A DNA stretch of 64,000 bases from Acutalibacteraceae bacterium. GTDB taxonomy: Bacteria; Bacillota; Clostridia; Oscillospirales; Acutalibacteraceae. The stretch covers positions 246 through 64,245 of the forward strand of contig JAZUQA010000012.1 in assembly GCA_045605425.1 (NCBI GenBank), in the 5' to 3' direction. The notes under the pieces were generated by a model. That model was given only the letters and a program-made list of their open reading frames with translations, was not told the DNA's origin and searched no databases. Both the position numbers and the translations under genes were made by a program. Shown in pieces: positions 5,091 through 42,045 of the stretch (position 1 is the first letter of the stretch; each line of letters opens with the position of its first letter).

Positions 5091-5237
5091 AGCATTCGTT
5101 CCTTTCGTTGAGATAATATAATTTTAGTTGTAAACGGAATAAATGTCAATGGGGATGTTTTTTGTGAGTAGGAATAGAAATAATTGCAATCACGCACAAT
5201 AAAATACACCTGATTGAGATTTTTTCTCAATTAGGTG

Positions 5238-5265
5238 TTGACTTTTGAGGTTTTTTGAATATAAT
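5238..5265 (+). promoter_or_regulatory. Putative sigma-70 promoter of the AAA/RloB/TIR-like operon
   Basis: TTGACT (5238..5243), 16-nt spacer, TATAAT (5260..5265). An imperfect inverted repeat cctgattgaga/tctcaattagg lies just upstream (about 5208..5234). Confidence 0.5.
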
Positions 5266-5300
5266 AAATATTGTAGAGGACAAAAAGGAGAGAATTGATT

Positions 5301-6575: not shown

Positions 6576-6578
6576 CAA

Positions 6579-7229
6579 ATGGCTCGAATCGAAAGAAACG
6601 GAAATCGAAAAACAAGAGACCAGTTTGCTAAAAAAAGAGTCCCTGAGTTAGGCTATTATTTCATTGTAACTGACACAAAAGAAACAGAACAAAATTATAT
6701 GCATGGGTTGAGAGACTCTATTCCGTCGGATTTACAAGGCAAACTGGTAATAAAGGTAGTTAAAACCAAAACAAAAAACTTGGTAGAAGAGGCAATGGAT
6801 CTCGCCTCTTTGCATCCACAATATGGAGAAACTTGGATTATTTTTGACAGAGATCAAGTTCAAAATTTTGATGAGATCATTTGGCAAGCAAGAGAAAAAG
6901 GCATTCATGTCGGATGGACAAACCCATGTATTGAAGAATGGTTTTGTGCATATTTCGGCAAAATGCCTACATACGCAGATTCAGTTTCGTGCTGTTCGGG
7001 ATTCGGCAAAATTTTCGAGAATGCTACCAATCAAAAATACGAAAAATCAGATACGGCAATATACAAAAAGCTGATTCGTTTCGGAAACGAAGACGAAGCA
7101 ATTAAACTTGCTCAAAGAAAATTGAGTGAACACCGAGCGAACGGTAAGACAAAACCTTCAGAGATGAACCCTTGTACAACTGTTCACCTTTTGGTTGGTG
7201 AGATAAAAGGTAAAACAAAAAAGGAGTAA
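6579..7229 (+). CDS. RloB-like protein (Toprim-like partner of the AAA ATPase), AbiLii-like
   Basis: 216 aa. YYFIVTDTKETEQNY near the N-terminus and WIIFDRDQVQNFDEIIWQAREKGIHVGWTNPCIEEWF match my recollection of RloB family hallmarks (xxDrD, NPcFE-W). The start is 3 nt after the upstream stop, with AAGGAGG embedded in the upstream gene end. Confidence 0.75.
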   Translation: MARIERNGNRKTRDQFAKKRVPELGYYFIVTDTKETEQNYMHGLRDSIPSDLQGKLVIKVVKTKTKNLVEEAMDLASLHPQYGETWIIFDRDQVQNFDEIIWQAREKGIHVGWTNPCIEEWFCAYFGKMPTYADSVSCCSGFGKIFENATNQKYEKSDTAIYKKLIRFGNEDEAIKLAQRKLSEHRANGKTKPSEMNPCTTVHLLVGEIKGKTKKE

Positions 7230-7232
7230 AGT

Positions 7233-8393
7233 ATGGCAAAACAAAAAGTAACTGAAAAAACAGAATCTTGTAAAAAAACAACCACACCGAAATCTGCAAA
7301 TACTCCCGAAAAGTCTATTAAAAAGACTATAAGACAAACAGATTTGCCTAAAGTTTCTCTTGAAGATGCTTTAAAAGTTCCAATGGCAATTTGGGATCAA
7401 TATGCTGGCGGCGCAACTCAACCGATATTTGTTGCGCAGGCAATAGGGATTTCCCCATCCAGTTCCAATTGGAGGGTGCTGAGCGGAGCGGCTATTGCAT
7501 ATGGATTAACAGAAGGTGGGTATAATTCTAAAGAAATTTCGCTAACCGAATTAGGCAGGAGAATTGTCGCACCCACCTCCGAAAACGATGATAAATTAGC
7601 TCTTTTTCAAGCTGCTCAACTGCCACATTATTTTAAAAATTTTTACGAAAAATATGGTAATGGAAGTAAGTTGCCACAGGAAAACATTGCAGCAAATATT
7701 CTTACATCATGGGGAGTGCCTAAATCTGATGCTAAAGATGCTTTTGATTTAATAAGGAGAAATGGTGAATATTGCGGATTAATAGTAACCATACATGGTA
7801 ACCAATATGTTAATACCACGCCTCCGAAAACAACAACAGAAGCAGAAGAAAAACTCGCCACTTCCTTTGAAAACAGTGAAGAAGAAATAATTGTTCCTGA
7901 CAGAGTGCTTGAAAGCTTAGATATAGCTATTGATAAGAAAGAAGAAGCTCTTAAGCCTGATGTTGTTAACAATAAAGTTTTCATATCGCATGGAAAAAAT
8001 AAAAAGGTTGTTGAACAATTAAAACAATTGCTTGAATTTGGAGCTTATGATCCTGTTGTGTCAGTAGAAAGAGAAACAACTGCAATATCTGTACCAGACA
8101 AAGTTTTCAATGATATGAAAATGTGCAATGCTGGGGTTATTCATATTGAAGGCGAGCGAAAACTGTTAGATACAGAAGGACAAGAACATAGCTTGATAAA
8201 TGAGAATGTGTTAATTGAAATAGGTGCAGCTATTGCCTTATTCAATAAAAAGGTTATCTTGCTATGCAAAAAAGGAACCGCTTTGCCTTCAAATTTACAA
8301 GGTTTATATCGTTGTGAGTACGAAGGGGAACAATTGGATTATGAGTCAACAATGAAACTGCTTAAAACGTTCAGTGAATTCAGAAAGAATTAA
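7233..8393 (+). CDS. Two-domain protein: uncharacterised N-terminal region plus C-terminal TIR-like nucleotide-binding domain (Cap12/Pycsar-effector type)
   Basis: 386 aa. The C-terminal ~135 aa read VFISHGKNKKVVEQLKQLLEFG ... ENVLIEIGAAIALFNKKVILLCKKGTALPSNLQGLY, which parallels the VFIVHG / NVIFELG / PSDLxG pattern of the predicted TIR-like nucleotide-binding family. The start is 3 nt after the RloB stop, with AAGGAG 6 nt upstream. Confidence 0.6.
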   Translation: MAKQKVTEKTESCKKTTTPKSANTPEKSIKKTIRQTDLPKVSLEDALKVPMAIWDQYAGGATQPIFVAQAIGISPSSSNWRVLSGAAIAYGLTEGGYNSKEISLTELGRRIVAPTSENDDKLALFQAAQLPHYFKNFYEKYGNGSKLPQENIAANILTSWGVPKSDAKDAFDLIRRNGEYCGLIVTIHGNQYVNTTPPKTTTEAEEKLATSFENSEEEIIVPDRVLESLDIAIDKKEEALKPDVVNNKVFISHGKNKKVVEQLKQLLEFGAYDPVVSVERETTAISVPDKVFNDMKMCNAGVIHIEGERKLLDTEGQEHSLINENVLIEIGAAIALFNKKVILLCKKGTALPSNLQGLYRCEYEGEQLDYESTMKLLKTFSEFRKN

Positions 8394-8395
8394 AT

Positions 8396-8435
8396 ATAAC
8401 GCGGCTGTGAATTTCATAGCCGCGTTATATTTTAT
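8396..8435 (+). terminator. Intrinsic terminator after the three-gene operon
   Basis: Perfect 11-bp stem ataacgcggct / agccgcgttat with an 11-nt loop, followed by a T-rich tract. Confidence 0.7.
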
Positions 8436-8507
8436 AATAAACATATATAAAATGTCTTTCAATATTTTATAAGAGTTACTATCTATAATACAATTTCATT
8501 TTATGTG

Positions 8508-10142
8508 TTAAATCATTTTAAAATATTTCAACGCATCAACAATTGCGTCTTCTTTTTCTTTCGGGCAGTTGGGGACACGGTGGCCGTCTTTGCCTTTGTT
8601 ATAGCATTCTCTTTCAATGATGCCGTGTTTGGTTTTGACCTGAGCTATATATAACGAAGAAACCTTCAGTCCGAACTTTTTGAACACATATTCCTTGATT
8701 TCATCATAGGTTGCCTTGCTTTCAGCTGCGGTAATATCCATCTCATCAAGGTCTAAATCTATGTCGATATATGCGTCGGCCTTTCGTTGGGACAACTGGA
8801 CAACCGTCTCTGTATGGACGGTTTTGGGGAATAAGTCTACGGGGGTTACGAAGTGTTTGCCGTTTTCTTCGGGCACGGTATAGCCGAGGGTGGCGAAAAC
8901 TGCGCAGTCACGGGCGAGGGTTGCAGGGTCACACGAAACATATACCACACGCTTCGGGCTCATTTTAGCAACCGTTTTGATAATTGCTTCGTCACAGCCC
9001 TTTCTGGGCGGGTCGAGAATTATTACGTCGGGCTTTATGCCTTCTTTTTCCAGCTCTGCCGCTGCAAGCGAAGCGTCGCCGCAGATGAAGCGTGCGTTTT
9101 TAATGCCATTCCTTTCTGCGTTTTTCTTTGCGTCCTCTATTGCGTCGGGTATGATTTCAACGCCGATAAGCTGTTTTACTCTTTTTGCCATAGTCAGTCC
9201 GATTGTGCCCACACCGCAGTACATATCGAGAAGTACGGTGTTTTTATCTAACTCGGCATATTCTGCGGCAAGGGAATAGAGCCTTTCCGCCTGTGCACGG
9301 TTGACCTGATAGAAGGAAAGCGGTGAAATTTCAAATTCGGTTTCGCACAGTGTGTCGGTAATACTGCCTTTTCCGAAAAGGGTCTTGTTTTTTGCACCAA
9401 GAATTACGTTTGTTTTTTCTTTGTTTGTGTTGATTACAAGCCCCGTTGCGCCCTTGGCACAAATCATTTCCCACAGCTTTTCCGAGTGGGGAAGGTTATT
9501 TCCGTTTATTACGAGGCAGACGAGGATTTCCCTGCAGTCTTTTGCCGCACGGATATATATGTGGCGGAGCAGTCCTTTGTGGGAATTTTCGTCATAAACG
9601 CTTATATGATTTTCCTCTGCCCAGTTTCTCACCTGCTCGGCAATAGCCGAAAACGCTTCGGGCTGAAGCAGGCAGCTTTCACAGCCGATTATGTTGTGAC
9701 TGCGGCGTGAAAAGAAGCCTGTCTTGATTTTTCCCTGCTCTTCGCCTACGGGTAGCTGTGCCTTGTTGCGGTAGCCGACTGTTGTTTCGCTGCCGATAAT
9801 ATCTCTTATATTAAGCGGCAGACCTGCAATGCGGTGAAAGGCATCCTCCACACGCTGCTGTTTTATTTTAAGCTCTGCCTCATAGCTGATGTGGCGGTAT
9901 GCACAGCCCCCGCAACGCCTGAATACGGGGCAGTCGGGCTCAACTCTGTCGGGCGAGGGCTTGATTATTTCCATTGCCTTTGCAACGGCATAATTCTTTT
10001 TTACCTTTATTGCGTGTGCAAGAATTGTGTCGCCAACTGCCGTGAGGTCGGCAAAAACAGCCATACCGTCAATATGGCCTACGCCGCTTCCCTCGGCGGT
10101 CATTCCCGTTATTTCAAGCTCAAATTCGTCGTTCTTTTTCAA
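8508..10142 (-). CDS. rlmD: 23S rRNA (uracil-5)-methyltransferase RlmD/RumA family with a ~90 aa C-terminal extension
   Basis: 544 aa. N-terminal TRAM domain, Fe-S cysteine cluster CPVFRRCGGCAYRH, SAM-binding DMYCGVGTIG, catalytic region VYVSCDPATLARD. Extra C-terminal domain after about residue 455. Confidence 0.85.
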   Translation of the reverse strand: MKKNDEFELEITGMTAEGSGVGHIDGMAVFADLTAVGDTILAHAIKVKKNYAVAKAMEIIKPSPDRVEPDCPVFRRCGGCAYRHISYEAELKIKQQRVEDAFHRIAGLPLNIRDIIGSETTVGYRNKAQLPVGEEQGKIKTGFFSRRSHNIIGCESCLLQPEAFSAIAEQVRNWAEENHISVYDENSHKGLLRHIYIRAAKDCREILVCLVINGNNLPHSEKLWEMICAKGATGLVINTNKEKTNVILGAKNKTLFGKGSITDTLCETEFEISPLSFYQVNRAQAERLYSLAAEYAELDKNTVLLDMYCGVGTIGLTMAKRVKQLIGVEIIPDAIEDAKKNAERNGIKNARFICGDASLAAAELEKEGIKPDVIILDPPRKGCDEAIIKTVAKMSPKRVVYVSCDPATLARDCAVFATLGYTVPEENGKHFVTPVDLFPKTVHTETVVQLSQRKADAYIDIDLDLDEMDITAAESKATYDEIKEYVFKKFGLKVSSLYIAQVKTKHGIIERECYNKGKDGHRVPNCPKEKEDAIVDALKYFKMI

Positions 10143-10199
10143 TGTAATTCCCCTTGAATATTTGCAAGTATATATTGTAATATATTAATAGGTGATATT

Positions 10200-10508
10200 A
10201 TGGATAAATCGGTTTTTGAAAAAATATATGATGTGGTTAAACAGATTCCCCGTGGCAAGGTGGCTACCTACGGACAAGTTGCCTTGCTTGCAGGAAACCC
10301 ACGGTGGGCAAGGGTAGTCGGCTACGCCCTGCACGTCAATCCCGACCCTGACACAATTCCCTGCTACCGTGTTGTCAACCGTGAGGGCAGGGTTTCGCCT
10401 GCCTTTGCCTTTGGCGGAGAAAATATGCAGATTTTAATGCTGGAGGGTGACGGAATAAAGGTCACCGACGGAAAGGTGGATTTATCCGTCTGCCAATGGC
10501 TTCCTTGA
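10200..10508 (+). CDS. MGMT-family protein (methylated-DNA-protein-cysteine methyltransferase DNA-binding domain only)
   Basis: 102 aa. IPRGKVATYGQVA and the active-site-like IPCYRVV (canonical PCHRV). Confidence 0.75.
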   Translation: MDKSVFEKIYDVVKQIPRGKVATYGQVALLAGNPRWARVVGYALHVNPDPDTIPCYRVVNREGRVSPAFAFGGENMQILMLEGDGIKVTDGKVDLSVCQWLP

Positions 10509-10958
10509 TTTTAATATCTTTAAAACAACAATATATAAAAGTACGCAAACGGCAATTCCGACTGCCGCACCTGTTGCATCTACTGCAATATCGCTTATCT
10601 GAAACGCTCTGCCGGGAACAAAAATCTGGTGAATTTCATCGCTGATTGCGTAAAGCACCGCCACGGCAAAGCAGATGAAAGGCTTTGATTTGCCCGTGGT
10701 CTGTAAAAAAGCGTGGAAAAGCAGGGCGCCGAGTCCGCAGTATTCAAGTCCGTGCGCAAGCGTGCGGAAGGCCTCGTGCCCCAGAAAATCGGTAAGCCAC
10801 GCAAAAACGGCAAATATGCCGTTCATAACTGCCATACTCAATTCGGCACTTTCTTCTCGGGGCTGATGTGAAAGGTAAAAAATCACACCCATGCAGGCGG
10901 CAACTGCTGCCCAACCGATAAGGATGCCGAATTTTCTTTTTGTGCTGTAGTTTTTCAT
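10482..10958 (-). CDS. VanZ family membrane protein
   Basis: 158 aa, 4 TM segments, DEIHQIFVPGRAFQISDIAVDATGAAVG motif typical of VanZ-like proteins. Confidence 0.7.
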   Translation of the reverse strand: MKNYSTKRKFGILIGWAAVAACMGVIFYLSHQPREESAELSMAVMNGIFAVFAWLTDFLGHEAFRTLAHGLEYCGLGALLFHAFLQTTGKSKPFICFAVAVLYAISDEIHQIFVPGRAFQISDIAVDATGAAVGIAVCVLLYIVVLKILKSRKPLADG

Positions 10959-12592
10959 TAGTCTTTCAATATCTCCGTTTGGTCAAGTCTGATTATACTT
11001 CCCGAATGTGTGTAGTAAATGCCTACGGCGTTTTCGTTTGTTGCGGTATAGCCCGAGCGGTAGTAAATCGGACAGAAAACCGCATTCTGTACAAGATATT
11101 CCTGTGCCTTCATACAGCCGTCTGCAATGCTTTGCAGACCTGTGGCGGTGTTGAGCTGTGAAACAAGCGTGTTGAAGTTTTTGGAATTGTAGCGGCAGAT
11201 GTTGTTGCCGTCACGGAAGGTGGAAAGAAACTGAACGGCGGTCTGTGCCGTTGTGGTGATTTCGGTGAGCGCACATTGGTAGCTGCCGCTGCTTATACGC
11301 TTGTCGAGCTCCGCTTTTTCAAGCACCTCAACCTTTGCGTAAAACGTTATACCGAAAAGCTGCTGCCATTTCTGGATTATGCGGCGCACGGCTGTTTCGT
11401 ATTCGGGTGTACACAGCACGGTGAATTCGCAGGATTTGAGGTTGCATTCCTTGTAGTACTTTTTAGCGGCGCTTTCGTCGTAGCTCAGCGTGCCGAGCGC
11501 AGGCATAAAGCTCGAATAGGTTTTTCCCTCAACCGTGCAGGACGGCGGCACTATGCTCAGCGCACGGTTTTCCTCCGCTTCGCCCGAAGCCTCACGGATT
11601 ATGTCGAAATCAAGAGCTTTGATAAGTGCAAGGCGCAGACGGTTGCTCTTTGTAAGTGAATCCGAGCAGTTGAATGCAAGACCCCACACGCCGTTTTTGT
11701 ATTCGTTTATGCTGTAGCCCTCTTTTTTGACGGCATCTATGCTCGAATAAAGTATCGGGGCGGAGGCATAGGTATCGTCGGACAGGTTTTCGAGGATGAT
11801 TGCTTCGTCCGTAGTGTACGCAAAGGTGACGGAATAAACCTTTGCCTGCGCCTGCGGATTGTCAACGTTACGGCGCAGTATCATATTGCTGCCCTTATAC
11901 CAGCGTGAAAGGTAGAAGCTGCCGTTGCACAGCACATACTGTGCGTCAAGTCCGTGTCTGCCGCCCGTGGCTTCAAAAAACGCCTGCTTGCAGGGCATTG
12001 AAATCGGCTCGGTGAGCATTGAAAGAAATTCGCCGCTTGCGTATTCAAGCTGTATTTGTACGGTGTATTCGCCCGTTGCGGTAACGCCGAGCGCACTCAC
12101 GGGCAATTCACCCTTGTGCACCTTTTCGGCATTCTTTATCATATAAAGGCGCTTTGCGTCGGGAGCCTTGGTTTCGGGGTCGAGAGCCCTCTGCAGTCCG
12201 AAAACAAAGTCTGCCGCAGTTACACGCAGGTCAATTGCCGTTTCCCAGTCCTCGCCGAAAATCTCCTCGTGGTTGGAGTTGATGTGCCACTTTTTGTCCT
12301 CGTGAAGTGAAAAAGAATAGGTAAGCCCGTCGGGAGAAACTGAAACGCTTTTTGCCGCCGCAGGCTGAATTTCGCCCGTTGCGGTCAGCTTCATAAGCCC
12401 CTCAAAGCAGTTGAGCACAACAGTCCTGCTCTCACGGGTAACGGCTATCTGCGGGTCAAGCGTGTCGGGCTCGGCACTTAAAGGCAGTCGCAGCTCAGCA
12501 TCCTTGACCGTTTTTGAACAGCCCGAAAAACAGCCGCAGACCGTAATCAGCGAAAGGATAAGTATAGCTATTTTTAAAGAATACTTTTTCAT
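10958..12592 (-). CDS. Peptide/oligopeptide ABC transporter substrate-binding lipoprotein (family 5 SBP)
   Basis: ORF 10958..12613. The likely start is MKKYSLKIAILILSLITVCGC (ATG comp 12590..12592), which has a lipobox. The length and LRLPLSAEPDTLDPQ motif are typical of family 5 SBPs. Confidence 0.7.
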   Translation of the reverse strand: MKKYSLKIAILILSLITVCGCFSGCSKTVKDAELRLPLSAEPDTLDPQIAVTRESRTVVLNCFEGLMKLTATGEIQPAAAKSVSVSPDGLTYSFSLHEDKKWHINSNHEEIFGEDWETAIDLRVTAADFVFGLQRALDPETKAPDAKRLYMIKNAEKVHKGELPVSALGVTATGEYTVQIQLEYASGEFLSMLTEPISMPCKQAFFEATGGRHGLDAQYVLCNGSFYLSRWYKGSNMILRRNVDNPQAQAKVYSVTFAYTTDEAIILENLSDDTYASAPILYSSIDAVKKEGYSINEYKNGVWGLAFNCSDSLTKSNRLRLALIKALDFDIIREASGEAEENRALSIVPPSCTVEGKTYSSFMPALGTLSYDESAAKKYYKECNLKSCEFTVLCTPEYETAVRRIIQKWQQLFGITFYAKVEVLEKAELDKRISSGSYQCALTEITTTAQTAVQFLSTFRDGNNICRYNSKNFNTLVSQLNTATGLQSIADGCMKAQEYLVQNAVFCPIYYRSGYTATNENAVGIYYTHSGSIIRLDQTEILKD

Positions 12593-33772: not shown

Positions 33773-33848
33773 GCTGCTATGGCTCAGGTGGTAGAGCACA
33801 TCCTTGGTAAGGATGAGGTCGGCAGTTCGAGTCTGCCTAGCAGCTCCA
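33773..33848 (+). tRNA. tRNA-Thr (anticodon GGT); integration target of the downstream element
   Basis: Acceptor GCTGCTA/TAGCAGC, anticodon stem CATCC/GGATG with loop TTGGTAA, T-arm GGCAG-TTCGAGT-CTGCC, encoded CCA. The 3' 46 nt are repeated at 42000..42045. Confidence 0.9.
33803..33848 (+). repeat. attL (46-bp direct repeat, 3' part of the functional tRNA-Thr)
   Basis: cttggtaaggatgaggtcggcagttcgagtctgcctagcagctcca is identical to 42000..42045. Confidence 0.9.
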
Positions 33849-33951
33849 ATCCCTTGAAACTTAAGGTTTCAAGGGATTTTTCATTTGTTTTTGAAATTTC
33901 TTAGACCTCATCCCTGAATCGCAATTTTTTAGTAAAGGATGCGGTCTAACT

Positions 33952-34884
33952 ATGAACAGAAAAATCACTATGAACAGGACTGAAAACAAGACTTTTGAAC
34001 AGGTCTTTTCAATGTTCATAACTTCACGAGCGGCAAAAGGCGTTGCCGATGCCACAATCAGGAATTATCATCAACATTTGCACAGTATTTCAAAGTATCT
34101 TGACATTCAGATGTCCTTTGATGCTCTTTCCAAAAGCACTATCGATGAAATGATTGTATCAATGAGAAAATCAGAACTTGCACACAACTCTATTGCAACC
34201 TATGTCAGGGTTATAAAGACCTTTTTGACTTGGTGCAATGAAGAAGGTTTGTCTGATGTAAGAATCAAAGGTCTGAAGGAAAAGGAAACAATCAAAGAAA
34301 CCTACTCCGATGAAGAACTTGAGAAACTTCTTGAGAAACCGAAAAAGGATTGTAATTTTTGCGAATACCGCAATTGGGTTATCGTCAATTTTCTTCTCAA
34401 TAGCGGATGCCGAGCGGCAACCATACGGAACATTCAGAACAGGGATGTTGACCTTCAGCGAAAACAGGTTATCTTCCGCCATAATAAAAATGGCAAGATT
34501 CAGGTTATTCCCCTTTGCACCCTGATGTGTAATATTCTTTATGATTATATGAAAATCCGACAAGGAAAATCGGAAGATTATCTTTTCTGCGACCAATACG
34601 GTCAGATGTTTACGGAGAATGGTCTCAGACTTGCCATTGAGCGGTATAATAAAAAAAGAGGTGTATCAAAAACAAGCACGCATCTGTTCCGACACACCTT
34701 CGCCCGAAAGTATTTAGTTGATTGCGGCGGCGATGCCTTTATGCTTCAAAGGCTCTTGGGTCATAGCACCCTGAATATGACAAAGCATTACTGCACAATC
34801 TTTGATGCAGATATTGCCAAGAACTATGACAGGGTTTCTCCTTTGGCTCAGATGCACCAAGAGAAAAAGAAAATAATAAAGTAA
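33952..34884 (+). CDS. Tyrosine-type site-specific integrase
   Basis: 310 aa. Catalytic signature GCRAATIRN (R), HLFRHTF (H-x-x-R), LGHSTLNMTKHY (H..Y). Confidence 0.9.
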   Translation: MNRKITMNRTENKTFEQVFSMFITSRAAKGVADATIRNYHQHLHSISKYLDIQMSFDALSKSTIDEMIVSMRKSELAHNSIATYVRVIKTFLTWCNEEGLSDVRIKGLKEKETIKETYSDEELEKLLEKPKKDCNFCEYRNWVIVNFLLNSGCRAATIRNIQNRDVDLQRKQVIFRHNKNGKIQVIPLCTLMCNILYDYMKIRQGKSEDYLFCDQYGQMFTENGLRLAIERYNKKRGVSKTSTHLFRHTFARKYLVDCGGDAFMLQRLLGHSTLNMTKHYCTIFDADIAKNYDRVSPLAQMHQEKKKIIK

Positions 34885-34983
34885 TAAAATAAAAGAAGTA
34901 GGAAATCATCAGGTTTCCTACTTCTTTTTATCAACCATATTACAAGTTTATAAAGACAGTATAACAACTTTTTAACAACTTTT

Positions 34984-36105
34984 TTAATCGCTATACATAT
35001 CTCTTATCTTATCCAAATGAGCCTTATAACCTTCAACCACATGGTCAGGCGAAAGAATCTTTACTCTTTTGCCGAACCCTGCTAACCAACCATAAAAAGG
35101 GTCGCTTATATCAACTGTTGTCATAACCGTAAAATAATCTTTGTCGAGCTTAGAATATGACACGCCCTTTTTGCCAAACCGCTCAACAACGGCATCCAAA
35201 AGGAAGTTAGGAAAACAAAGTGTGACGACTTCGGTTTTGCCTTTGAACATATTAAAAGTTCTTTTTACAAGCGAATCAATGTTGGTTTTTTCGTATTCTT
35301 CTTTGCCCTCTCTTGGCTCAAATGTAAAACAAACATCTTTCATTCTGTCAACTCTGTAAATTCTTATCTCTTTGTATTTATCATCAAATCCTAAAAGATA
35401 GTAATTACCTTCATTGACTATGAGTTTAAAAGGACTTACAACGTACTTTTCGCCCTTTCTTTGTGCAACCTGATTGTGAAGGTCATTGATTGAGTTTTTC
35501 ATATAATGAAAACTTATCTTTTCGGGTTCGTGCGGTTCGCCGTCAAAACTTACGCTCATCGCATCGTAAATGGTTTGAATGTTGTATATCAGAGCGGTAT
35601 TTGTTGTCTTGGGTCTGTCGATAACAAAAGCATCCGCCTTTATTTTTTTCGCCTGATGTTCGCTGAGAAATTCACAGGCGGCATCAATCAATCTCTGAGC
35701 CTCAGATTCAGAAACAAATTTTGCCGAGTTTATACATTCTGTCATAAGGCGTATATCTTCAAGATTAAAGTGCCTTTTATCTATGTAAAAACCTTTTTTA
35801 TACTTGTATTTTATAAGTTTTTCTTCATCATATTCATCAGTCGCAATTACTTCTGCAGCTTCTATAATATCAGAATCATTTTCAAGCATCCAATTAACTT
35901 CATTTATTTCTTCAATATCTTTGTATATTGAGCGGCGTTCAGCATAAATCTGACAACTTTCCTGAAGAAACCCCTCAATATCTTTACCTGTTGCAAAATG
36001 CTCTGCATCGGTATTTTTGAGAAGATATTGAAGAACGATGTAAGGCTTCATGCGTTGCTTTGTTTTTTTGCCGTGATGCTTGTCAGGATGCTTTTTCTCT
36101 GCCAT
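34984..36105 (-). CDS. HTH plus WYL domain transcriptional regulator
   Basis: 373 aa. N-terminal wHTH-like region (YIVLQYLLKNTDAEHFATGKDI) and WYL-type core VVSPFKLIVNEGNYYLLGFDDKYKEIRIYRVDRMKDV. Confidence 0.7.
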   Translation of the reverse strand: MAEKKHPDKHHGKKTKQRMKPYIVLQYLLKNTDAEHFATGKDIEGFLQESCQIYAERRSIYKDIEEINEVNWMLENDSDIIEAAEVIATDEYDEEKLIKYKYKKGFYIDKRHFNLEDIRLMTECINSAKFVSESEAQRLIDAACEFLSEHQAKKIKADAFVIDRPKTTNTALIYNIQTIYDAMSVSFDGEPHEPEKISFHYMKNSINDLHNQVAQRKGEKYVVSPFKLIVNEGNYYLLGFDDKYKEIRIYRVDRMKDVCFTFEPREGKEEYEKTNIDSLVKRTFNMFKGKTEVVTLCFPNFLLDAVVERFGKKGVSYSKLDKDYFTVMTTVDISDPFYGWLAGFGKRVKILSPDHVVEGYKAHLDKIRDMYSD

Positions 36106-36191
36106 AATATATCACCTTCTTGTGTCTGTTGGCGATATTATAACACGCAAGTCCAAAAGTGTGAAGTCTCTTAGTGTATTTATTAAAGCAC

Positions 36192-36400
36192 TTGAAAATT
36201 TAAATTTATATTGATATAATAATATTACCACACAAAATCAAATATTTTACTCATACAAGAGGTGGCATTTTTGTCTTTCGGCAAAAGTGCGGACTTCTAT
36301 ATTCGCATTTCTTGTATGAGTGACGAAAGATTTTGTGTGGTAGCAAATCGAAGTTCCGCATTTTTCGGTGTGTGTGGCTTCGGTTGCACACACTTTTTTA
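36192..36400 (+). ncRNA. Promoter-proximal structured RNA (nested rod-like hairpin plus intrinsic terminator); class unknown
   Basis: TTGAAA (36192..36197), 17-nt spacer, TATAAT (36215..36220). Perfect 14-bp stem 36226..36239 / 36329..36342, perfect 11-bp stem 36250..36260 / 36310..36320, and inner stem gcatttttg/caaaagtgc. Terminator gtgtgtgtggc-ttcg-gttgcacacac plus T-run (36368..36400). Confidence 0.5.
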
Positions 36401-36500
36401 TTTTATGGAGAATAAAACGGTGTCAGCTTGTATTGAGGAGGCGAAAATACGATTCTCCATAAACAGTATCAAAATACATACAAAACAAGAGGTGTTTATT

Positions 36501-37175
36501 ATGAAGAAAACTATATCCTTACTTTTAACATTTATGCTTTTACTGACTTTTGCCGCTTGCGGTAATAAACAAGATAACTTTTTGACAAAAACAAGCTGGA
36601 CAAATATTTACGACGAAAGTGATACTTTTACGTTTAAGGCTGACGGAACAGGAACATTTGGAAACATAAGCACTACATGGTCATTAGAAAATAGCAGATT
36701 AACTGTTTCGTATATGGGAACAATAAGAACTATGACAATAGAGTTTGATATTGTTGAATTTGAAAATTCAACAATAATTATTGAATGCCCAAACGATATT
36801 GTTGACACAAAAATATTAGTTTCTTCTGACAATTATGCAACAGAATCAGAAAAAGTTATAAATTATTTAAACACAGCAGCAACACCTTTGGACTGGGATA
36901 CGGTATATGATGAATATCTTTTAAACAAAGCACGAGCCGCAGAAAAGTATACAGGAACAATCGTAAAATGGACTGCAAAAGTTTATTATATAAGCGATAA
37001 TTTTTGTCAAATGGCAATAGAAGCTTCGAAAGGTAGTCCTGTAAACCCAATAGAGGTATATATGGAAACCAGTGAACTGACAAAGTTCAATATCTATGAT
37101 GAAATAACTGTTATCGGTATTTTAGAAATGGATTCAGCATCAACTCAAATCAACGGTGCATTTGTTGTGGACTAA
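36501..37175 (+). CDS. Hypothetical lipoprotein (element cargo)
   Basis: Lipoprotein signal MKKTISLLLTFMLLLTFAACGNK with a lipobox. The ORF-track extension back to 36333 covers the structured RNA and terminator and is unlikely to be real. Confidence 0.7.
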   Translation: MKKTISLLLTFMLLLTFAACGNKQDNFLTKTSWTNIYDESDTFTFKADGTGTFGNISTTWSLENSRLTVSYMGTIRTMTIEFDIVEFENSTIIIECPNDIVDTKILVSSDNYATESEKVINYLNTAATPLDWDTVYDEYLLNKARAAEKYTGTIVKWTAKVYYISDNFCQMAIEASKGSPVNPIEVYMETSELTKFNIYDEITVIGILEMDSASTQINGAFVVD

Positions 37176-37225
37176 AAAAATATTTAAATCAAAAAGGAAC
37201 GGCAATAAAACCGTTCCCTTTTCTT

Positions 37226-37813
37226 TTATGTCTCCAAAATAGAAAGATATTTATAAACCGTGTTTCGGCTCAGACCGCAGACCCTTGCGAACTCTGAAAG
37301 ATTCAGATTACCCGATTTGAAAGACGGATAATGTCTGTAAAACACTTGCGGAATCTGCTCTAATGTTGTGTGCGGTCGCCCGATTTTCGCTCCCTTCGCC
37401 GCCGCATTCCGCATCCCTGAACGCACTCTTTCACGGATGATTCTGAGTTCGAGTTCCGCAAACACTCCCGACATCTGAATGAACGCATTTGTCATGGGGT
37501 CAATCTGACCGTTTGAACAATCTACCGTAATACTGCCGACAATAACAAGTCTGAGTTTCTTTTCCTTTACGGTGTCAATAATTTCGCACAGTTGTTTTGT
37601 GCTTCGGGCAAGTCTTGAAACTTCGAGTGTGTATATTGAATCACCCTCTTTCGCCTGTGCCAAGAGTGATGAAAGTTCCTGTTTTACGGCACTGTCGCCG
37701 TGTTCGTATTCAAGGAATATTTCCGTTGCTCCTGCGGTTTTAAGTTCCCTGATTTGGCGGTCGATATCCTGTTTGTTTTCGTTGGTACTGCATCGAGCAT
37801 ATCCGTAGTTCAT
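37226..37813 (-). CDS. Small serine recombinase (resolvase/invertase family)
   Basis: 195 aa. Catalytic N-terminus MNYGYARCSTNENKQDIDRQ, SRLARS motif, C-terminal HTH (SEFARVCGLSRNTVYKYL). Confidence 0.9.
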   Translation of the reverse strand: MNYGYARCSTNENKQDIDRQIRELKTAGATEIFLEYEHGDSAVKQELSSLLAQAKEGDSIYTLEVSRLARSTKQLCEIIDTVKEKKLRLVIVGSITVDCSNGQIDPMTNAFIQMSGVFAELELRIIRERVRSGMRNAAAKGAKIGRPHTTLEQIPQVFYRHYPSFKSGNLNLSEFARVCGLSRNTVYKYLSILET

Positions 37814-37861
37814 GATTTATCCTTTCACCGCCCCACTTTTGCGTGGGGCGGATTGTTTTGT

Positions 37862-38137
37862 TTAGCAGATTGAGAAGCGGCGGCTGCTGACTTGCTTTGT
37901 AAATTCCTTATACATATCGCCGTGAGCCTTTTTGAAGGATGTTGTATCAAATCTCTGTGAGAGAACCGATGTCCAACGGATGATGTATGCTCCTGCTTCA
38001 AGTTCCTCTGTGTTTTGATTGAGCATTTCGGCTTTCAGTGCGTCTCTTATTGCCTCGGCTTCTGCCTTTGCATCCTCAATGATTGTTTCCCACTCTGTGA
38101 GTGCCTCAATTTTTTTGATGATTTCATTGCTTGACAT
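37862..38137 (-). CDS. Hypothetical small coiled-coil protein
   Basis: 91 aa ORF upstream of, and co-oriented with, the recombinase gene. Followed by the hairpin ccgccccac/gtggggcgg (37829..37851). Confidence 0.5.
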   Translation of the reverse strand: MSSNEIIKKIEALTEWETIIEDAKAEAEAIRDALKAEMLNQNTEELEAGAYIIRWTSVLSQRFDTTSFKKAHGDMYKEFTKQVSSRRFSIC

Positions 38138-38191
38138 AGTTGTTATCTCCTTTGTTTTTTATTTGTTTGTTGTGTATCAACTGTCTTTATT

Positions 38192-38295
38192 ATACACAAA
38201 GTTCAGTGCATAGTCAATCGGCAATATGCACAAAGTTAAGTGCATAGAATTGGAGAAATTATACACTTGACTTTGTGTATATTGTTTGATATAAT
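38192..38295. promoter_or_regulatory. Divergent promoter/operator region: two 22-bp direct repeats, a palindrome and a consensus promoter for the XRE gene
   Basis: ATACACAAAGTTCAGTGCATAG (38192..38213) and ATGCACAAAGTTAAGTGCATAG (38226..38247), 20/22 identical. Palindrome tatacac..gtgtata overlaps TTGACT (38267..38272). 17-nt spacer, then TATAAT (38290..38295). Confidence 0.6.
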
Positions 38296-38324
38296 GATTA
38301 CAATGGAAAAGGGGGCTTTTAAAT

Positions 38325-38543
38325 ATGCCAATAGTATATGATAAATTATTTCAACTTTTGAAAGACAAAGGTTATACCACATACAAAATCCGACAGGAGA
38401 AGATAATAGGTCAGGGAACGCTGACCGCATTAAAAAATGGAACAGGCGGCTTAGACCACAAAACGCTTGCTCGACTTTGTGAAAAGTTTGATTGTCAGCC
38501 TGCCGACCTCATGGAGTATGTGAAAGACCCCGATGCTCAATAA
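38325..38543 (+). CDS. XRE/Cro-CI family HTH transcriptional regulator
   Basis: 72 aa. YKIRQEKIIGQGTLTALKNG ... TLARLCEKFDCQPADLMEY is typical of short HTH_26-type regulators. Confidence 0.85.
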   Translation: MPIVYDKLFQLLKDKGYTTYKIRQEKIIGQGTLTALKNGTGGLDHKTLARLCEKFDCQPADLMEYVKDPDAQ

Positions 38544-38821
38544 AGGGGGAAAATTGATTCTTGAACAAATAACGGTATTTTTTGAGCGGATTACCCTCGA
38601 TTTTTACTGAGCCAAAAGTGTCAAGGAAAAGAGTTGGTTTCTTGAACGGATAGACGGGGGCAATATTTCGGGAGAATCGAAAACTTTTTCACCGTTTGCG
38701 GAATTGCGTGGTTCGTTCTCCGTCTGAATGTGTTTTTTATTTTGGATTACGGTTTGAGCCGACCGCAAATGATAGAATTATTCTTTCACCGTAAAACGAG
38801 CCAAAAGGAACATAAACGAAA

Positions 38822-38864
38822 AATACGGCAAACCTTGAGATTGTCTCTCTTGGTTTGCCGTATT
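38822..38864. terminator. Bidirectional hairpin between the XRE gene and the end of the minus-strand operon
   Basis: Perfect 13-bp stem aatacggcaaacc / ggtttgccgtatt with a 17-nt loop. Confidence 0.55.
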
Positions 38865-38865
38865 G

Positions 38866-39000
38866 TCATTTGAAATCCTTAAAGATTTCGTCAAGAGCCA
38901 TATCGAGTGCGGTTTTCATGCTCTTTTGCATAAAGGCAAGAATTTCCGCCTCGATTATGTTTTTCTTTTTCTTCTTCTTTTTGTCTTTTGGATTCGACAC
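38866..39000 (-). CDS. Small lysine-rich hypothetical protein (44 aa)
   Basis: Own translation: GTG start 8 nt after AGGTGA, VSNPKDKKKKKKKNIIEAEILAFMQKSMKTALDMALDEIFKDFK, TGA stop. Last ORF of the operon. Confidence 0.4.
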   Translation of the reverse strand: MSNPKDKKKKKKKNIIEAEILAFMQKSMKTALDMALDEIFKDFK

Positions 39001-39002
39001 CG

Positions 39003-39188
39003 TTATTTCACCTCACTTGTAAAGATGAATTGAACAGTCTCAGGTTCTTCCGAATCCTGTAATGAGTTGTAGAAATTATCTCTCTGTTCTCTATAGTTTT
39101 CTATTGCAGATTTGCCGTTCATTTGATAATAAAACAAATCAGGAACTTTGCCCTATGCTCTGTTAAACTCCAATAAATCTTTATTCAT
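39003..39188 (-). CDS. Small hypothetical protein (61 codons) containing one in-frame TAG (comp 39153..39155)
   Basis: Own translation: GGAGA RBS, MNKDLLEFNRA[TAG]GKVPDLFYYQMNGKSAIENYREQRDNFYNSLQDSEEPETVQFIFTSEVK, TAA stop. The ATG overlaps the TGA of the TAG-read-through GIY-YIG ORF (ATGA). Confidence 0.45.
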
Positions 39189-39622
39189 ATATATTCTCCT
39201 TCCATAATATCATCAAGGGATATATTCAATGCACCCCTGTTGACCGTATAACTTCTCCAATTTTCCTCTTTTGGAATCTGAGTGTTCAGCGGCGGCTAAT
39301 ACAGGCGGATGAAATATCCTTCTCTTTCTCCGATTTCTTCTTCGATTTCTGCTCTTGTTTTGCTCTTGGCGGTATAAAGAACGTTGAATCTGACGTTATA
39401 TTTCCGCCTGTGGGCTTCCGCAAGAACTTTGTATTTGTTCTCTTTCGGATTTCCCATTGAAGCCCAATGTTCCGCCATTCGGTATAGAATATCTTTGCTT
39501 TTACCGATATAAACGATTTTATTGTTGACGGTTATTGAATAAACCCCCGAACACTAAAACTTTTTACTCCATTCTTGCTCTATGTATTTGTTGTATATGT
39601 TCTGTATGTGTAAATTACTCAT
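39185..39622 (-). CDS. GIY-YIG nuclease-domain protein with two in-frame TAG codons (comp 39554..39556 and 39296..39298); recoded/suppression-dependent, or a pseudogene
   Basis: Own translation after the AAGGAAGGAGA RBS: MSNLHIQNIYNKYIEQEWSKKF[TAG]CSGVYSITVNNKIVYIGKSKDILYRMAEHW...EREGYFIRLY[TAG]PPLNTQIPKEENW...GEYI, TGA stop. The GIY (GVYSI) and YIG (VYIGKS) motifs have no canonical start codon after the first TAG. The conserved E..I..Y.P.LN motif spans the second TAG. Confidence 0.6.
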
Positions 39623-39637
39623 ATTCATTCTCCTTCC

Positions 39638-40120
39638 TTAAAATACAAAATTACCGTATTCGTCTGTTGAACACTCTCTTACTTTTGGATTCTTTATATT
39701 GTTATAATTTATATTATTCGAGCTTATAATTTTCTCTATATTATTATGCGTATTTTCAATAACCCCTGCTGAGGTGTATTCAGAATTTGAAGGGGTATAT
39801 TCATTGTCGGGGGAAGGGGTATTTTCAATATCCCTCTCCGCACTTTTGTAAATCGCATCATAATCCACTATGATTTCGCCTTGCTGACCGTTTACACTTG
39901 GCTTATGTATTATCCAACCTTTTTCAATTAATGCTTTTCTTGCACTCTTATATGTTGTTTCCGTCATTCCGCAACGGTTCATAACTGTTGCCTCAGGAAC
40001 GGCAAAACTGCCGTTATCTGCATTTCCTGTCAGAAATAATATCAGTTTCAACTAAGCTCCTTCTTTGCCTGTCAGACCGTTAAATATTATTGATTCAAGG
40101 TGATTCGTTCTCATTGCCAT
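39638..40120 (-). CDS. Winged-HTH replication-initiator-like protein with one in-frame TAG (comp 40052..40054)
   Basis: Own translation: MAMRTNHLESIIFNGLTGKEGA[TAG]LKLILFLTGNADNGSFAVPEATVMNRCGMTETTYKSARKALIEKGWI... A standard-code alternative exists (TTG start at 40051 with AAGGAG upstream). The frame is also open further upstream to the ATG near 40189. Confidence 0.55.
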
Positions 40121-40151
40121 TCCCCACTTTTTATCCCTGTTTTTTTCTCCA

Positions 40152-40331
40152 TTAGCCCTCAGTATCGGTGCCTGAATAAAAACGCCCATAACCGCAAATC
40201 CTCCACTGTTCGCAAATAAATCTGATATACTGACTTGTATTCATGTGATATTTTCTTGCCTACTCTTGGATTGCTTCCTTTTCTTTTTCAGTCAGGCGAA
40301 GGTCAATTTTTTTATCTTTTTTTGGACTCAT
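40152..40331 (-). CDS. Ribbon-helix-helix (MobC/CopG-like) protein with one in-frame TAG (comp 40260..40262)
   Basis: Own translation after the AAAGGAGAG RBS: MSPKKDKKIDLRLTEKEKEAIQE[TAG]ARKYHMNTSQYIRFICEQWRICGYGRFYSGTDTEG, TAA stop. The RHH pattern (basic tail, RLT.E.K..I...A.....S.YIR) runs across the TAG. Confidence 0.6.
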
Positions 40332-40401
40332 ATTATCTCTCCTTTTACTTGTAAATTTTCTTTGAAATGAATTATCAGACATTGTCCTACCTTCTAAATA
40401 T

Positions 40402-40430
40402 ATTATACAAAAATTTTTTGTTAAAATCAA
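40402..40430 (-). promoter_or_regulatory. Putative sigma-70 promoter of the TAG-containing operon
   Basis: On the minus strand: TTGATT (comp 40425..40430), 17-nt spacer, TATAAT (comp 40402..40407). Confidence 0.55.
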
Positions 40431-40446
40431 AAAAGAGCGGTCGCCG

Positions 40447-40486
40447 CAAACAAAAGCACCGCTGAACTCGATTGAATTCAGCGGTG
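40447..40486 (-). terminator. Intrinsic terminator after the paralog-pair operon
   Basis: Minus-strand hairpin caccgctgaa / ttcagcggtg (40457..40486) followed by cttttgtttg. Confidence 0.6.
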
Positions 40487-40521
40487 GACTTGCTTTATTA
40501 AAATACATGGAGTTGTTCCTT

Positions 40522-41043
40522 TCAGGCAGCAGGGTCAACTATTTCATTTTCTTCAGTTGCGTTAACGTTTTCTGCAACTGCGTTATCGATTTTTATAACT
40601 GCGTTATCTTTTTCCTCTTGGACTTCATCAGAATTTTTGTCAACAGTCGGCATACCATAATTTACGATTTCAGGATATTTCTTCAAAAACCAATTTTTAA
40701 TTTCAGGATAACGGTATGCTTTTGAATGACATTCACTGATAAAAAGTTTATCATCAAGTTCTTTAAGAACGGCATCTCTTGTTTCAACAGGCTCAAACCT
40801 TTTGATATATTCTTTCATATAATCATAAGTTAATCCTTTATAGTGTTCCTGATTGCTGTTAGTGTTTATATCTTCACGGATAACCACCTCAAAATTCGGA
40901 AAACTCTTTACATACTCGACAAGCATTTTGTATTCCTTGTTTTTTGGGTTTTTTGCCTTTTCCGCAAACCATTTATAAAGAATGATTTGCTTGTTTGCGT
41001 AATCAATTCTTGCAGGGTTTATTCTTTTTCTTGACTTAGCCAT
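40522..41043 (-). CDS. Hypothetical protein, paralog B of the upstream gene
   Basis: ORF 40522..41052. The ATG at comp 41041..41043 is 8 nt after AAGGAAGG. Shares the YKGLTYDYMKEYI and IKNWFLKKYPEI motifs with paralog A. Confidence 0.6.
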   Translation of the reverse strand: MAKSRKRINPARIDYANKQIILYKWFAEKAKNPKNKEYKMLVEYVKSFPNFEVVIREDINTNSNQEHYKGLTYDYMKEYIKRFEPVETRDAVLKELDDKLFISECHSKAYRYPEIKNWFLKKYPEIVNYGMPTVDKNSDEVQEEKDNAVIKIDNAVAENVNATEENEIVDPAA

Positions 41044-41065
41044 GATATTCACCTTCCTTTCTTAA

Positions 41066-41512
41066 TTAAGCCACAACTCTAAGCTTGGCTTTCTTTTCTT
41101 CACGAGCCTTTGCTCTCTTGGTTTTGATTTCCTTAAGTGTCTTGTCAGTATCATTGTTGAATTCTTCGATTTCAGGATATGTCGCCAAGAACCACATTTT
41201 AATGTCACCATAAGAGTATTCTTTGATAGTAACATCTCTTTCACCTTTTTCATTAAGACCCCTGAGCTTATAGAACATTTTCAGGTTTTCTTCCTTATTT
41301 TCATGAGCTTCGATGTATCGCTTCATGTAATCATAACCAAGACCTTTGTATGTGTCTCTCTTGGTTGAGTTTGCTTTTACAACAATTTCATAACCTGTGA
41401 ATATTGTGCGGAACTTTACAAGTTCTTCAAACTTTTCACTTCCGAACTTTCCTGCTTCCTTTGATTCCGCCTTTGTCATTACAATAACTTTCTTTTCGTG
41501 ATTTGCATACAT
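41066..41512 (-). CDS. Hypothetical protein, paralog A
   Basis: 148 aa. Motifs YKGLGYDYMKRYI and IKMWFLATYPEI, with a basic C-terminal tail. Confidence 0.6.
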   Translation of the reverse strand: MYANHEKKVIVMTKAESKEAGKFGSEKFEELVKFRTIFTGYEIVVKANSTKRDTYKGLGYDYMKRYIEAHENKEENLKMFYKLRGLNEKGERDVTIKEYSYGDIKMWFLATYPEIEEFNNDTDKTLKEIKTKRAKAREEKKAKLRVVA

Positions 41513-41999
41513 AATTTTTCTCCTTAATAATAGGCGTTAGGTCGCCACCCTATTTTTATTATTCAGCGGTAAGTCGCTACCTTATTTCAGCACTTCAGGT
41601 TTCACCGTTTGCCTCTTGGTTTCATTCACTCCTTTCAGGCGATTTGTTTTGGTGTGTTCCCCTCTGCTGTGACTACAGTATATCACGCAATCTGAATTTA
41701 TCAGTCGTTATAAATGCAAAAAAACAAGAACGACACAAAGCTTTTCAAAAAAGTTGTATCTTTCTTCTTAAATAGTTGTTATTAGGTTGTTATAAAGGCT
41801 CATAAATGTTGTTAAAAACTTATTACATACCTGTTGATTTTATAATATAATTGTTTTATACTATTATTGATTTAGAGATGAGGTCTGAGTTAGTATGAAA
41901 CAAGACCTCTACATAATTAAAAATCCTAAAACTTGTTTGGTGTCAAGGGGTTGTTGGGGGTATCGTCTCCAAAACAAGACCGAGAATCGGTCTTGTGTG

Positions 42000-42045
42000 C
42001 TTGGTAAGGATGAGGTCGGCAGTTCGAGTCTGCCTAGCAGCTCCA
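42000..42045 (+). repeat. attR (46-bp copy of the tRNA-Thr 3' end)
   Basis: Identical to 33803..33848. Followed by the hairpin aaatcccgtttgc/gcaaatgggattttt, which I read as the original tRNA terminator. Confidence 0.9.

Follow-up and report, generated by a model that had tools for sequence, protein, structure and literature searches.

Is an operon whose genes are interrupted five times by the same stop codon broken, or is it read in another way? The question is raised by a 64,000-nucleotide stretch of the genome of an Acutalibacteraceae bacterium (Clostridia, Oscillospirales; GenBank assembly GCA_045605425.1, contig JAZUQA010000012.1, positions 246 to 64,245 of the forward strand), hereafter the window. 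Within it lies an 8,197-bp integrative element, and the minus strand of this element carries an operon in which five in-frame TAG codons fall in four consecutive genes. A preliminary description, drawn from the letters of the DNA alone, proposed amber recoding or an operon dependent on suppression. Our analysis supports that proposal: the lesions are of the TAG type only, the affected sites correspond to glutamine at the codon level, and the coding sequence past them is under constraint. Judged from these sequence comparisons, TAG very probably acts here as a translated glutamine codon, with expression of the operon dependent on suppression.

Five TAG codons interrupt four otherwise intact genes

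The five TAGs are all present, as translation of 38700-40600 on the minus strand confirmed (Table 1), and, as had been claimed, the four frames are otherwise free of TAA, TGA and frameshifts. The genes encode a NikA-like ribbon-helix-helix (RHH) protein, a winged-helix (wHTH) protein resembling replication initiators, a GIY-YIG nuclease and a small protein for which Pfam and PHROG searches gave no family match. Protein motifs had been said to run across the TAGs, and the Pfam NikA-like, HTH_36 and GIY-YIG domains each bridge TAG positions. PF21983 (NikA-like) matches residues 4-37 of the first gene product (E=4.4e-9), HTH_36 covers residues 45-93 of the second, with the TAG within the domain in both cases, and PF01541 (GIY-YIG) covers residues 27-112 of the third. 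In PHROG, the wHTH protein matches the replication-initiation and DnaD-like families 270, 186, 428 and 678, and the nuclease matches the endonuclease family 1111.

A Shine-Dalgarno sequence lies 7-10 nt upstream of each gene. The GIY-YIG gene most likely starts at 39622 or 39628, and its first in-frame start after TAG 3 is Met51, past both catalytic motifs, so that the GIY and YIG strands indeed have no start of their own beyond the TAG. The stop codon of this gene (39185-39187) overlaps the next ATG (39188-39186), forming the ATGA coupling that had been proposed. The description of the operon as four consecutive TAG-bearing genes stands in part; those four are joined by a fifth gene, at 38866-39000, which also belongs to it. 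The five reading frames end in TAA, TAA, TGA, TAA and TGA, none of them in TAG. Over 38866-40331, the coding density based on open reading frames (ORFs) rises from 0.41 to 0.81 when TAG is counted as sense.

The TAG-bearing genes form a transcription unit separate from their neighbours, as indicated by the strong terminator after orfB and the promoter that follows it ahead of nikA. Within the window element, TAG is present in 4 of the 13 genes. The operon has 5 TAGs against 14 CAA or CAG codons, whereas the eight other genes counted in the element have none against 45 (Fisher p=0.0015).

The operon recurs in a widespread family of elements

DNA of relatives was drawn from 80 GTDB species-representative genomes, 14 IMG/VR contigs, and further JGI, NCBI and Logan contigs; related loci are numbered with the prefix L. 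The same cassette is kept at more than 80 related loci. Its carriers comprise more than 80 bacterial species, including the isolates Oscillibacter valericigenes An860, Pseudoflavonifractor phocaeensis An901 and Hominicoprocola fusiformis CLA-AA-H188, with Pseudoflavonifractor sp. HCP28S3_F10 as a further cultured carrier, and the hosts of the relatives are Clostridia/Oscillospirales metagenome-assembled genomes (MAGs) from ruminant and other guts. The same gene order, at about 8 kb, recurs in elements that differ in integrase, insertion site and cargo, and we therefore regard the element as a stable unit rather than as debris. Searches of GenBank phages, by megablast with the element and by tblastn with the GIY-YIG protein, returned no match, and IMG/VR yielded nothing when the integrase or the wHTH protein served as the single query.

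More than one copy per MAG is frequent, and several MAGs hold 2 to 4 diverged copies of the cassette-bearing element: L003 and L008 in CALAQQ01, L013 and L017 in ONGJ01, L024 with L055, L063 with L079, and L042, L048, L056 and L067 in the Ructibacterium sp. JAZRPL01. Multiple copies per genome are common for satellites and integrative elements.

The interrupting codons are TAG and little else

Ordinary decay would be expected to leave mixed lesions in related copies, as the preliminary description pointed out. We screened the GIY-YIG family with one hidden Markov model against ORFs read through one stop type at a time, and the internal stops were 152 TAG against 1 TAA and 3 TGA. Internal TAGs occur in 82 of 100 GIY-YIG domains, the 152 codons being spread over 37 alignment columns (binomial p=1e-66); 141 remain when at least 6 aligned residues are demanded on either side. 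All other TAA and TGA matches proved on inspection to be real C-terminal stops. The true non-TAG internal stops are a TGA in place of a conserved glycine at about column 97 in L045 and L047, which are identical, a TGA in place of tryptophan in L056, and one TAA in L025. These are probably genuine pseudogenes and give a gauge of the background rate of decay.

Neither assembly errors nor alignments that end at the TAGs, both raised at the outset as grounds for doubt, were found. L003, L004 and L005 have all five TAGs at a nucleotide divergence of 7-12% from the window, and TAGs are found in GIY-YIG genes of cultured-isolate genomes too. Alignments continue past the TAGs. When the window was aligned codon by codon with 12 relatives, each of the four genes showed a ratio of non-synonymous to synonymous divergence (dN/dS) of 0.10-0.25 beyond its first TAG. 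Of the 13 aligned wHTH sequences, 11 keep the TAG, at a dS of 0.6 to about 1, and the remaining two, L001 and L010, have CAG.

A dead island in ordinary decay, or a sequencing or assembly artefact, is hardly tenable as an explanation. Five stops in four genes would normally mean pseudogenes, and the NCBI annotation of relatives does give truncated fragments. Against this stand lesions that are TAG-only (152 versus 4), TAG sites kept over 7-12% nucleotide divergence, purifying selection downstream of the TAGs, interchange of TAG with CAG, and the presence of TAGs in more than 80 independent assemblies, isolates included.

TAG very probably stands for glutamine

Glutamine had been expected at the TAG sites of homologues, and for four of the five sites in the window there are close relatives with CAG or CAA. 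Besides the wHTH site, the codon homologous to TAG 1 is CAG in L008, TAG in 8 relatives and ACG in 3; that of TAG 4 is CAG in L097, L098 and L008; and that of TAG 5 is CAA in L008. The near-invariant glutamine of the LNTQIP motif (Q115) of the nuclease is TAG in 9 sequences and Q in 84, and GIY-YIG column 51 holds 34 TAG, 20 CAG and 2 CAA. Column-wise log-odds, computed with the TAG codons themselves excluded, give glutamine +214 bits; the next residue, glutamate, scores -45. Relatives carry TAG at further glutamine positions, with two consecutive TAGs in the NikA-like gene of L002. Their NikA-like genes have TAG at the window position or at two other positions, and their small ORFs have it at three other codons.

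In a first protein alignment, the closest database proteins also had Q at both GIY-YIG TAG sites. This agreement is partly circular because those short contigs had gone through gene calling under code 15; at the DNA level, L097 has TAG at the first site and a true CAG at the second. We therefore set the protein-database argument aside in favour of the codon-level comparisons above, which are free of this circularity. The database itself holds the nuclease in two versions: full-length proteins of 145 residues from short contigs under code 15 (P0001-P0013), and fragments of 82-111 residues from long host contigs under code 11 (P0058-P0064, P0072, P0081 and P0088), among them NCBI entries named 'GIY-YIG nuclease family protein'.

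Pyrrolysine was considered as the product of UAG decoding and rejected, the aligned residue being glutamine and no tRNA(CUA) having been found in the window or the related loci.

TAG usage is specific to one transcription unit

The host keeps to the standard code, as its long ORFs are intact and some of them end in TAG (2 of 37 in the window, 24 of 250 in the flanks of related elements). For the element, we counted TAGs with at least 6 aligned residues per side across the family and expressed them as TAG/(TAG+CAA+CAG), a measure in which a few C-terminal TAGs cannot be classified. The ratio is 0.32 for the NikA-like gene, 0.27 for GIY-YIG, 0.17 for the small ORF, 0.12 for the last ORF and 0.07 for the wHTH gene. 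For genes outside the cassette it is 0/301 in orfA, 1/332 in orfB, 0/112 in the Cro-type regulator, 0/98 in orf91, 0/325 in the WYL regulator, 2/350 in the resolvase and 4/884 in the integrase, or about 0.3% TAG (Fisher p=3e-98 for cassette versus other genes). The last ORF, which has no TAG in the window, has one in its L011 homologue and internal TAGs in 4 of 27 family matches.

Contiguous nucleotide alignments cross the recoded and the standard-code genes at equal identity, which argues that the cassette evolved in place with the element and was not repeatedly re-imported. The avoidance of TAG in the other element genes rules out constitutive suppression by the host: these genes must function while UAG means stop, and those of the cassette are needed only once it means glutamine. 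Recoding is the rule, not the exception, in a widespread element family, and it is limited to one transcription unit.

Small phages and a plasmid-like circle carry related cassettes

Among the IMG/VR contigs are small phages of 18-27 kb that are TAG-recoded throughout (L085, L088, L089, L090/L112, L113 and L118), with coding densities that rise from 0.5-0.6 to about 0.9 when TAG is sense. In L088, L090, L087 and L108, a wHTH gene followed by a GIY-YIG gene lies 1-2.5 kb upstream of the terS/terL, portal and capsid genes, and in L087 an RHH gene stands ahead of both. The integrase gene of L088 has no TAG and adjoins tRNA-Thr. The small recoded phages, L088 and L090 among them, resemble the published Topaz prophages, which are TAG-recoded, measure 22 +/- 3 kb, reside in Oscillospiraceae, insert at tRNA-Thr and have TAG-free integrases (Borges et al., bioRxiv 10.1101/2021.08.26.457843). 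A terL of the Topaz-like type is found near the cassette in only 2 of 82 host-genome loci; the others are elements of about 8 kb without structural genes.

The distribution of TAG in L087 is uneven. Its cassette of RHH, small-ORF, wHTH and GIY-YIG genes (1171-2535) has 8 TAGs in 1.4 kb and two small ORFs at 3246-3601 have one each, while the terS-like, terL, portal and capsid genes (3757-11299) have none; the cassette of L108 is likewise TAG-rich. Published cases show the opposite, with the late genes being the recoded ones.

A further relative is pRGI00117 (L119, GenBank HG796263.1), a circular molecule of 7,167 bp obtained from the rat caecum mobilome after exonuclease treatment of the plasmid DNA (PMC3913684). 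Its Rep_3 initiator gene has no TAG, its HTH, TerS-like, wHTH and GIY-YIG genes have 1-4 each, and counting TAG as sense lifts the coding density of the circle from 0.50 to 0.81. The record was deposited with 14 tiny code-11 coding sequences; the recoding appears to have gone unnoticed and the record to be mis-annotated.

The promoter region of the operon is also conserved. A block of about 35 nt that takes in the spacer, TTGATTTT..CAAAAAAATTTTTGTATAATAT, is shared at 84-91% identity by the window (40399-40433, minus strand), the phage fragments L087 (247-281) and L108 (246-280), a further element, L083 (8934-8964), and pRGI00117 (3660-3702). The RHH-wHTH-GIY cassette is found downstream of it in the window, L087 and L108; the block may be a shared regulatory site.

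A possible source of suppression

Since the host stops at UAG and no suppressor is encoded in cis, transcripts in a resting cell should give only stubs of 11-45 residues. In an ordinary cell, then, the operon would be transcribed, only N-terminal stubs would be made and the module would stay silent. The TAG-free genes would be those needed in this resting state, namely integrase, WYL regulator, Cro-type regulator, resolvase and orfA/orfB. Full-length operon products would appear only under efficient UAG-to-Gln suppression in the cell, which we infer to be supplied in trans by a Topaz-like, TAG-recoded phage infecting the same bacterial order. The most likely donor is a phage of this kind, which has hosts, type of integration site, promoter block and cassette in common with the element. 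The code switch of this helper would unlock the replication-initiator/nuclease module, and the element would be either a satellite-like parasite or a relative of the recoded phages. A related speculation, that recoding might allow a phage to detect co-infecting phages by the suppressor tRNAs that these carry, has been published (Borges et al., bioRxiv 10.1101/2021.08.26.457843).

We are moderately confident in this explanation as a whole, that is, in a TAG=Gln operon with suppression in trans, probably from a recoded helper phage. The narrower claim, of a recoded helper phage as the source of the suppressor and of the element as a satellite, is an evenly balanced one on the sequence comparisons at hand. 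More tentative still is the broader idea of a satellite-like family, both integrative and plasmid-borne, for which the helper's change of genetic code would serve as the induction signal; we would put it at somewhat below even. On that idea, phage suppressor activity would be sensed directly at the ribosome, and the element could then replicate with the phage, ride in its particles or interfere with it.

Several results weigh against a helper phage. ARAGORN found no tRNA(CUA) in the 64-kb window or in 96 related loci (1.3 Mb in all), nor in about 20 Topaz-like phage loci, with Rfam scans in agreement, and no release-factor or other code-change gene was found, the Topaz-like phage loci included. 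The loci of the proposed donor phages, too, show no suppressor. No helper phage was identified for the window element, and no terS or capsid-redirecting gene was recognised in it in Pfam and PHROG scans. A blastn comparison of the element with the phage loci, made for a shared cos or pac site, returned the promoter block and coding similarity only. In metagenome contigs, attP and empty-attB junction patterns gave 0 matches. The standard-code structural genes and TAG-rich cassettes of L087 and L108 also fit poorly with a simple picture in which the late genes obey a code switch of the phage itself.

The search for a decoder was carried into IMG/VR. A generic tRNA(CUA) pattern matched 120 loci, mostly in large phages, and ARAGORN called tRNA(cta) in 90 of the 120, which served as a positive control; a pattern for tRNA(CUA) derived from tRNA-Gln had 0 matches. 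These 120 pattern-chosen loci contained no convincing match to the cassette or to its terminase type: one TerL match and three weak GIY-YIG matches (E of about 2e-4 to 5e-4) turned up, and matches to wHTH, NikA, the small ORF, orfA and orfB were absent. Rfam scans of the element and of eight recoded phage loci gave ordinary tRNAs only. In the published survey, suppressors were found in only about 40% of TAG-recoded phages (Borges et al.).

Another explanation is that the host itself suppresses UAG under certain conditions, through a chromosomal suppressor tRNA or a drop of release factor 1 (RF1) in stress or stationary phase, which would couple the module to host physiology. No phage-borne suppressor was found even in small, fully recoded phages of the same clade, which is consistent with host suppression, as is the share of about 40% reported by Borges et al. 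Host TAG stop usage is low, at 5-10%, so that read-through would be cheap for the host. We nevertheless consider this unlikely: about 1 Mb of host flanks with dozens of tRNA genes contains no tRNA(CUA), and the other element genes avoid TAG so strongly that a constitutive form can be excluded. To our knowledge, no regulated bacterial amber suppressor of such a kind has been described. A suppressor might also be dispensable, if near-cognate read-through by tRNA-Gln kept a potentially toxic module at trace expression, as a form of translational attenuation. Near-cognate decoding of UAG would insert glutamine, matching the residue found here, the window genes hold just 1-2 TAGs apiece, and toxicity of the predicted GIY-YIG nuclease is plausible. 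What makes this improbable is that relatives have up to 4-5 TAGs per gene and TAGs in every operon gene; with several TAGs per gene, read-through at the percent level would yield a multiplicatively negligible product. The TAGs also lack a common context that promotes read-through (no shared motif was seen around them, and the biases present reflect shared homologous sites and avoidance of CTAG), and the cassette occurs in phages recoded throughout, where efficient decoding must exist.

Gating in trans is compatible with another function, in which the nuclease is made upon the code switch and damages phage or host DNA, as a device of the abortive-infection or satellite-interference kind. Its gating logic and the evidence for it equal those of the helper-phage explanation, and the WYL regulator, a variable cargo slot with nuclease-like genes in relatives, and the nuclease being the most TAG-rich long gene would all suit a defence device. 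On the other hand, the element matches no known defence system and the nuclease is always paired with a replication-initiator-like protein. In phages, the wHTH/GIY-YIG pair resides beside the terminase genes, which argues for a role in replication or packaging, and we give the defence function little credence. Suppression in trans, probably by a recoded phage, remains the explanation that we prefer.

Relation to known recoded and satellite elements

It is established that phages and prophages in gut bacteria with the standard code may recode TAG to Gln. The window element resembles the Topaz and Garnet prophages (Borges et al.) in having TAG=Gln in a standard-code host and a TAG-free integrase, and Topaz in particular in its integration into tRNA-Thr; for those prophages, too, recoding has been proposed as a switch between resting and active programmes. 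Unlike Topaz, it measures 8.2 kb against 22 +/- 3 kb, it lacks the genes for terminase, capsid, tail and lysis and cannot form particles alone, and its recoding affects a single five-gene operon of replication- and nuclease-type genes, not structural or lysis genes. Membership in the Topaz clade, which is defined on a phage marker-protein tree, was accordingly rejected for an element of 8,197 bp without terL or virion genes and with TAG in 4 of 13 genes.

Block-wise dual coding has been described in crAss-like and other phages (Mgcod, bioRxiv 10.1101/2022.06.29.495998), and there is proteomic proof of code 15 in crAss-like phages (PMC9523058). As in these, adjacent standard-code and TAG-sense (Gln) gene blocks occupy one replicon; unlike the window element, dual-coding phages are large and virulent and, as the cited papers describe, often have their own suppressor tRNA and recode their late genes.

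Phage satellites (phage-inducible chromosomal islands (PICI), P4-like elements and phage-inducible chromosomal minimalist islands (PICMI)) are small, with an integrase for a tRNA site, att repeats, a Cro/CI-type switch, a replication initiator and no virion genes. The window element shares with them its small size, att repeats, a predicted Cro/CI-type switch with operators, an initiator-like protein, the absence of virion genes, a variable cargo slot and the occurrence of several related copies in one genome. It thus appears to have the structure of a phage satellite, its switch and replication functions being assigned by homology. Unlike these satellites, it has no recognised packaging-hijack gene (terS or capsid-size redirection). 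We know of no satellite gated by the genetic code of its helper, and none was found in the searched literature.

The plasmid pRGI00117 has, like the window element, a TAG-bearing wHTH and GIY-YIG pair, the same promoter block and no virion genes, and its maintenance gene (Rep_3) is TAG-free; it differs in being plasmid-like, with a Rep_3 initiator, no integrase and a TerS-like HTH protein in the recoded block. An integrative mobilizable element was considered and rejected, as only an accessory-type, NikA-like RHH protein is present and Pfam gave no relaxase domain; pRGI00117, the one related plasmid, is typed as non-mobilizable.

In the searched literature, we found no recoding in a small integrative or plasmid-like element that lacks both virion genes and suppressor, confined to a replication/nuclease cassette. 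The present family extends alternative coding from viruses to satellite-like and plasmid-like elements, and a 13-gene element with one recoded operon offers a small, tractable system for studying the source of UAG-to-Gln decoding and gating by a code switch. It also exposes a systematic annotation error, by which such genes appear on host contigs as fragments or pseudogenes, and which affects the annotation of at least one GenBank plasmid record. If the proposed gating is true, the operon would sense infection at the level of translation, with no need of a protein-protein or transcriptional trigger, and the element would be a concrete candidate for suppressor sensing by a non-phage element.

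The integrative element and its neighbourhood

The features of the element are collected in Table 1. Perfect 46-bp direct repeats bound it. ORF, Pfam and PHROG scans found no capsid, tail, portal, terminase or lysis gene, and ARAGORN and Rfam scans found no tRNA gene of the element's own.

Table 1. Positions of the TAG codons, genes and sites of the element, numbered along the window
Feature	Position	Strand	Remarks
Gene 1, NikA-like RHH	40152..40331	-	59 codons, one TAG, ends TAA
TAG 1	40260..40262	-	Codon 24 of NikA-like gene
Gene 2, wHTH, replication-initiator-like	39638..40189	-	183 codons, one TAG, ends TAA
TAG 2	40052..40054	-	Codon 46 of wHTH gene
Gene 3, GIY-YIG nuclease	39185..39622	-	145 codons, two TAGs, TGA overlaps next ATG
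TAG 3	39554..39556	-	GIY-YIG codon 23, ahead of both catalytic motifs
TAG 4	39296..39298	-	GIY-YIG codon 109, within E..I..Y.P.LN block
Gene 4, small ORF	39003..39188	-	61 codons, one TAG, ends TAA
TAG 5	39153..39155	-	Codon 12 of small ORF
Gene 5, Lys-rich ORF, last of operon	38866..39000	-	44 codons, no TAG, ends TGA
Promoter of TAG-bearing operon	40402..40430	-	TTGATT, 17 nt, TATAAT
Intrinsic terminator after orfB	40457..40486	-	13-bp stem, then T run
19-bp inverted repeat directly after gene 5	38822..38864	-	Likely operon end
Integrative element	33849..42045		8,197 bp; GC 36.8% versus 44.5% for the window
attL core, 3' end of tRNA-Thr(GGT)	33803..33848	+	tRNA gene 33773-33848
attR core	42000..42045	+	Identical 46-bp copy of tRNA-Thr 3' end; right end of element
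Tyrosine integrase	33952..34884	+	Standard code
WYL/WCX-domain regulator	34984..36105	-	Standard code
Lipoprotein cargo gene	36498..37175	+	Slot with variable content among related elements
Serine recombinase/resolvase (37226-37813) and orf91 (37862-38137; PHROG 6244)	37226..38137	-	Standard code
Three copies of 22-nt operator-like repeat	38191..38284		Divergent region between orf91 and HTH_26 gene
HTH_26 (Cro/CI-type) regulator	38325..38543	+	Standard code
orfB (40522-41052) and orfA (41066-41512)	40522..41512	-	Paralogues of 176 and 148 residues, standard code

The 22-nt repeat, TATRCACAAAGTTMAGTGCATA, is present as two direct copies and one inverted copy, a layout typical of a repressor switch. 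In Rfam, the repeats gave only spurious miRNA-like hairpins.

The cargo slot lies between the resolvase and the WYL regulator. In the window it holds the lipoprotein gene, which has a weak match of the superinfection-exclusion (Sie) type. The cargo of relatives includes an Mrr_cat/NA-iREase1 nuclease in L001 (12584-13855), a SHOCT protein in L002 (12347-12658) and a 1030-residue ORF in L097 (3886-6978). The slot may be a hotspot for defence genes; PADLOC recognised no defence system in the window element.

The orfA/orfB pair is conserved in many elements, always in the standard code, and neither protein belongs to a Pfam or PHROG family. An AlphaFold2 model of orfB (predicted local distance difference test, pLDDT, 72.7) has a small beta-sheet followed by a helical bundle; Foldseek returned nothing significant from PDB or BFVD. 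A 21-bp tandem duplication (40547-40588) in the 3' part of orfB repeats an NAVAENV-like peptide in the low-confidence C-terminal tail of the model.

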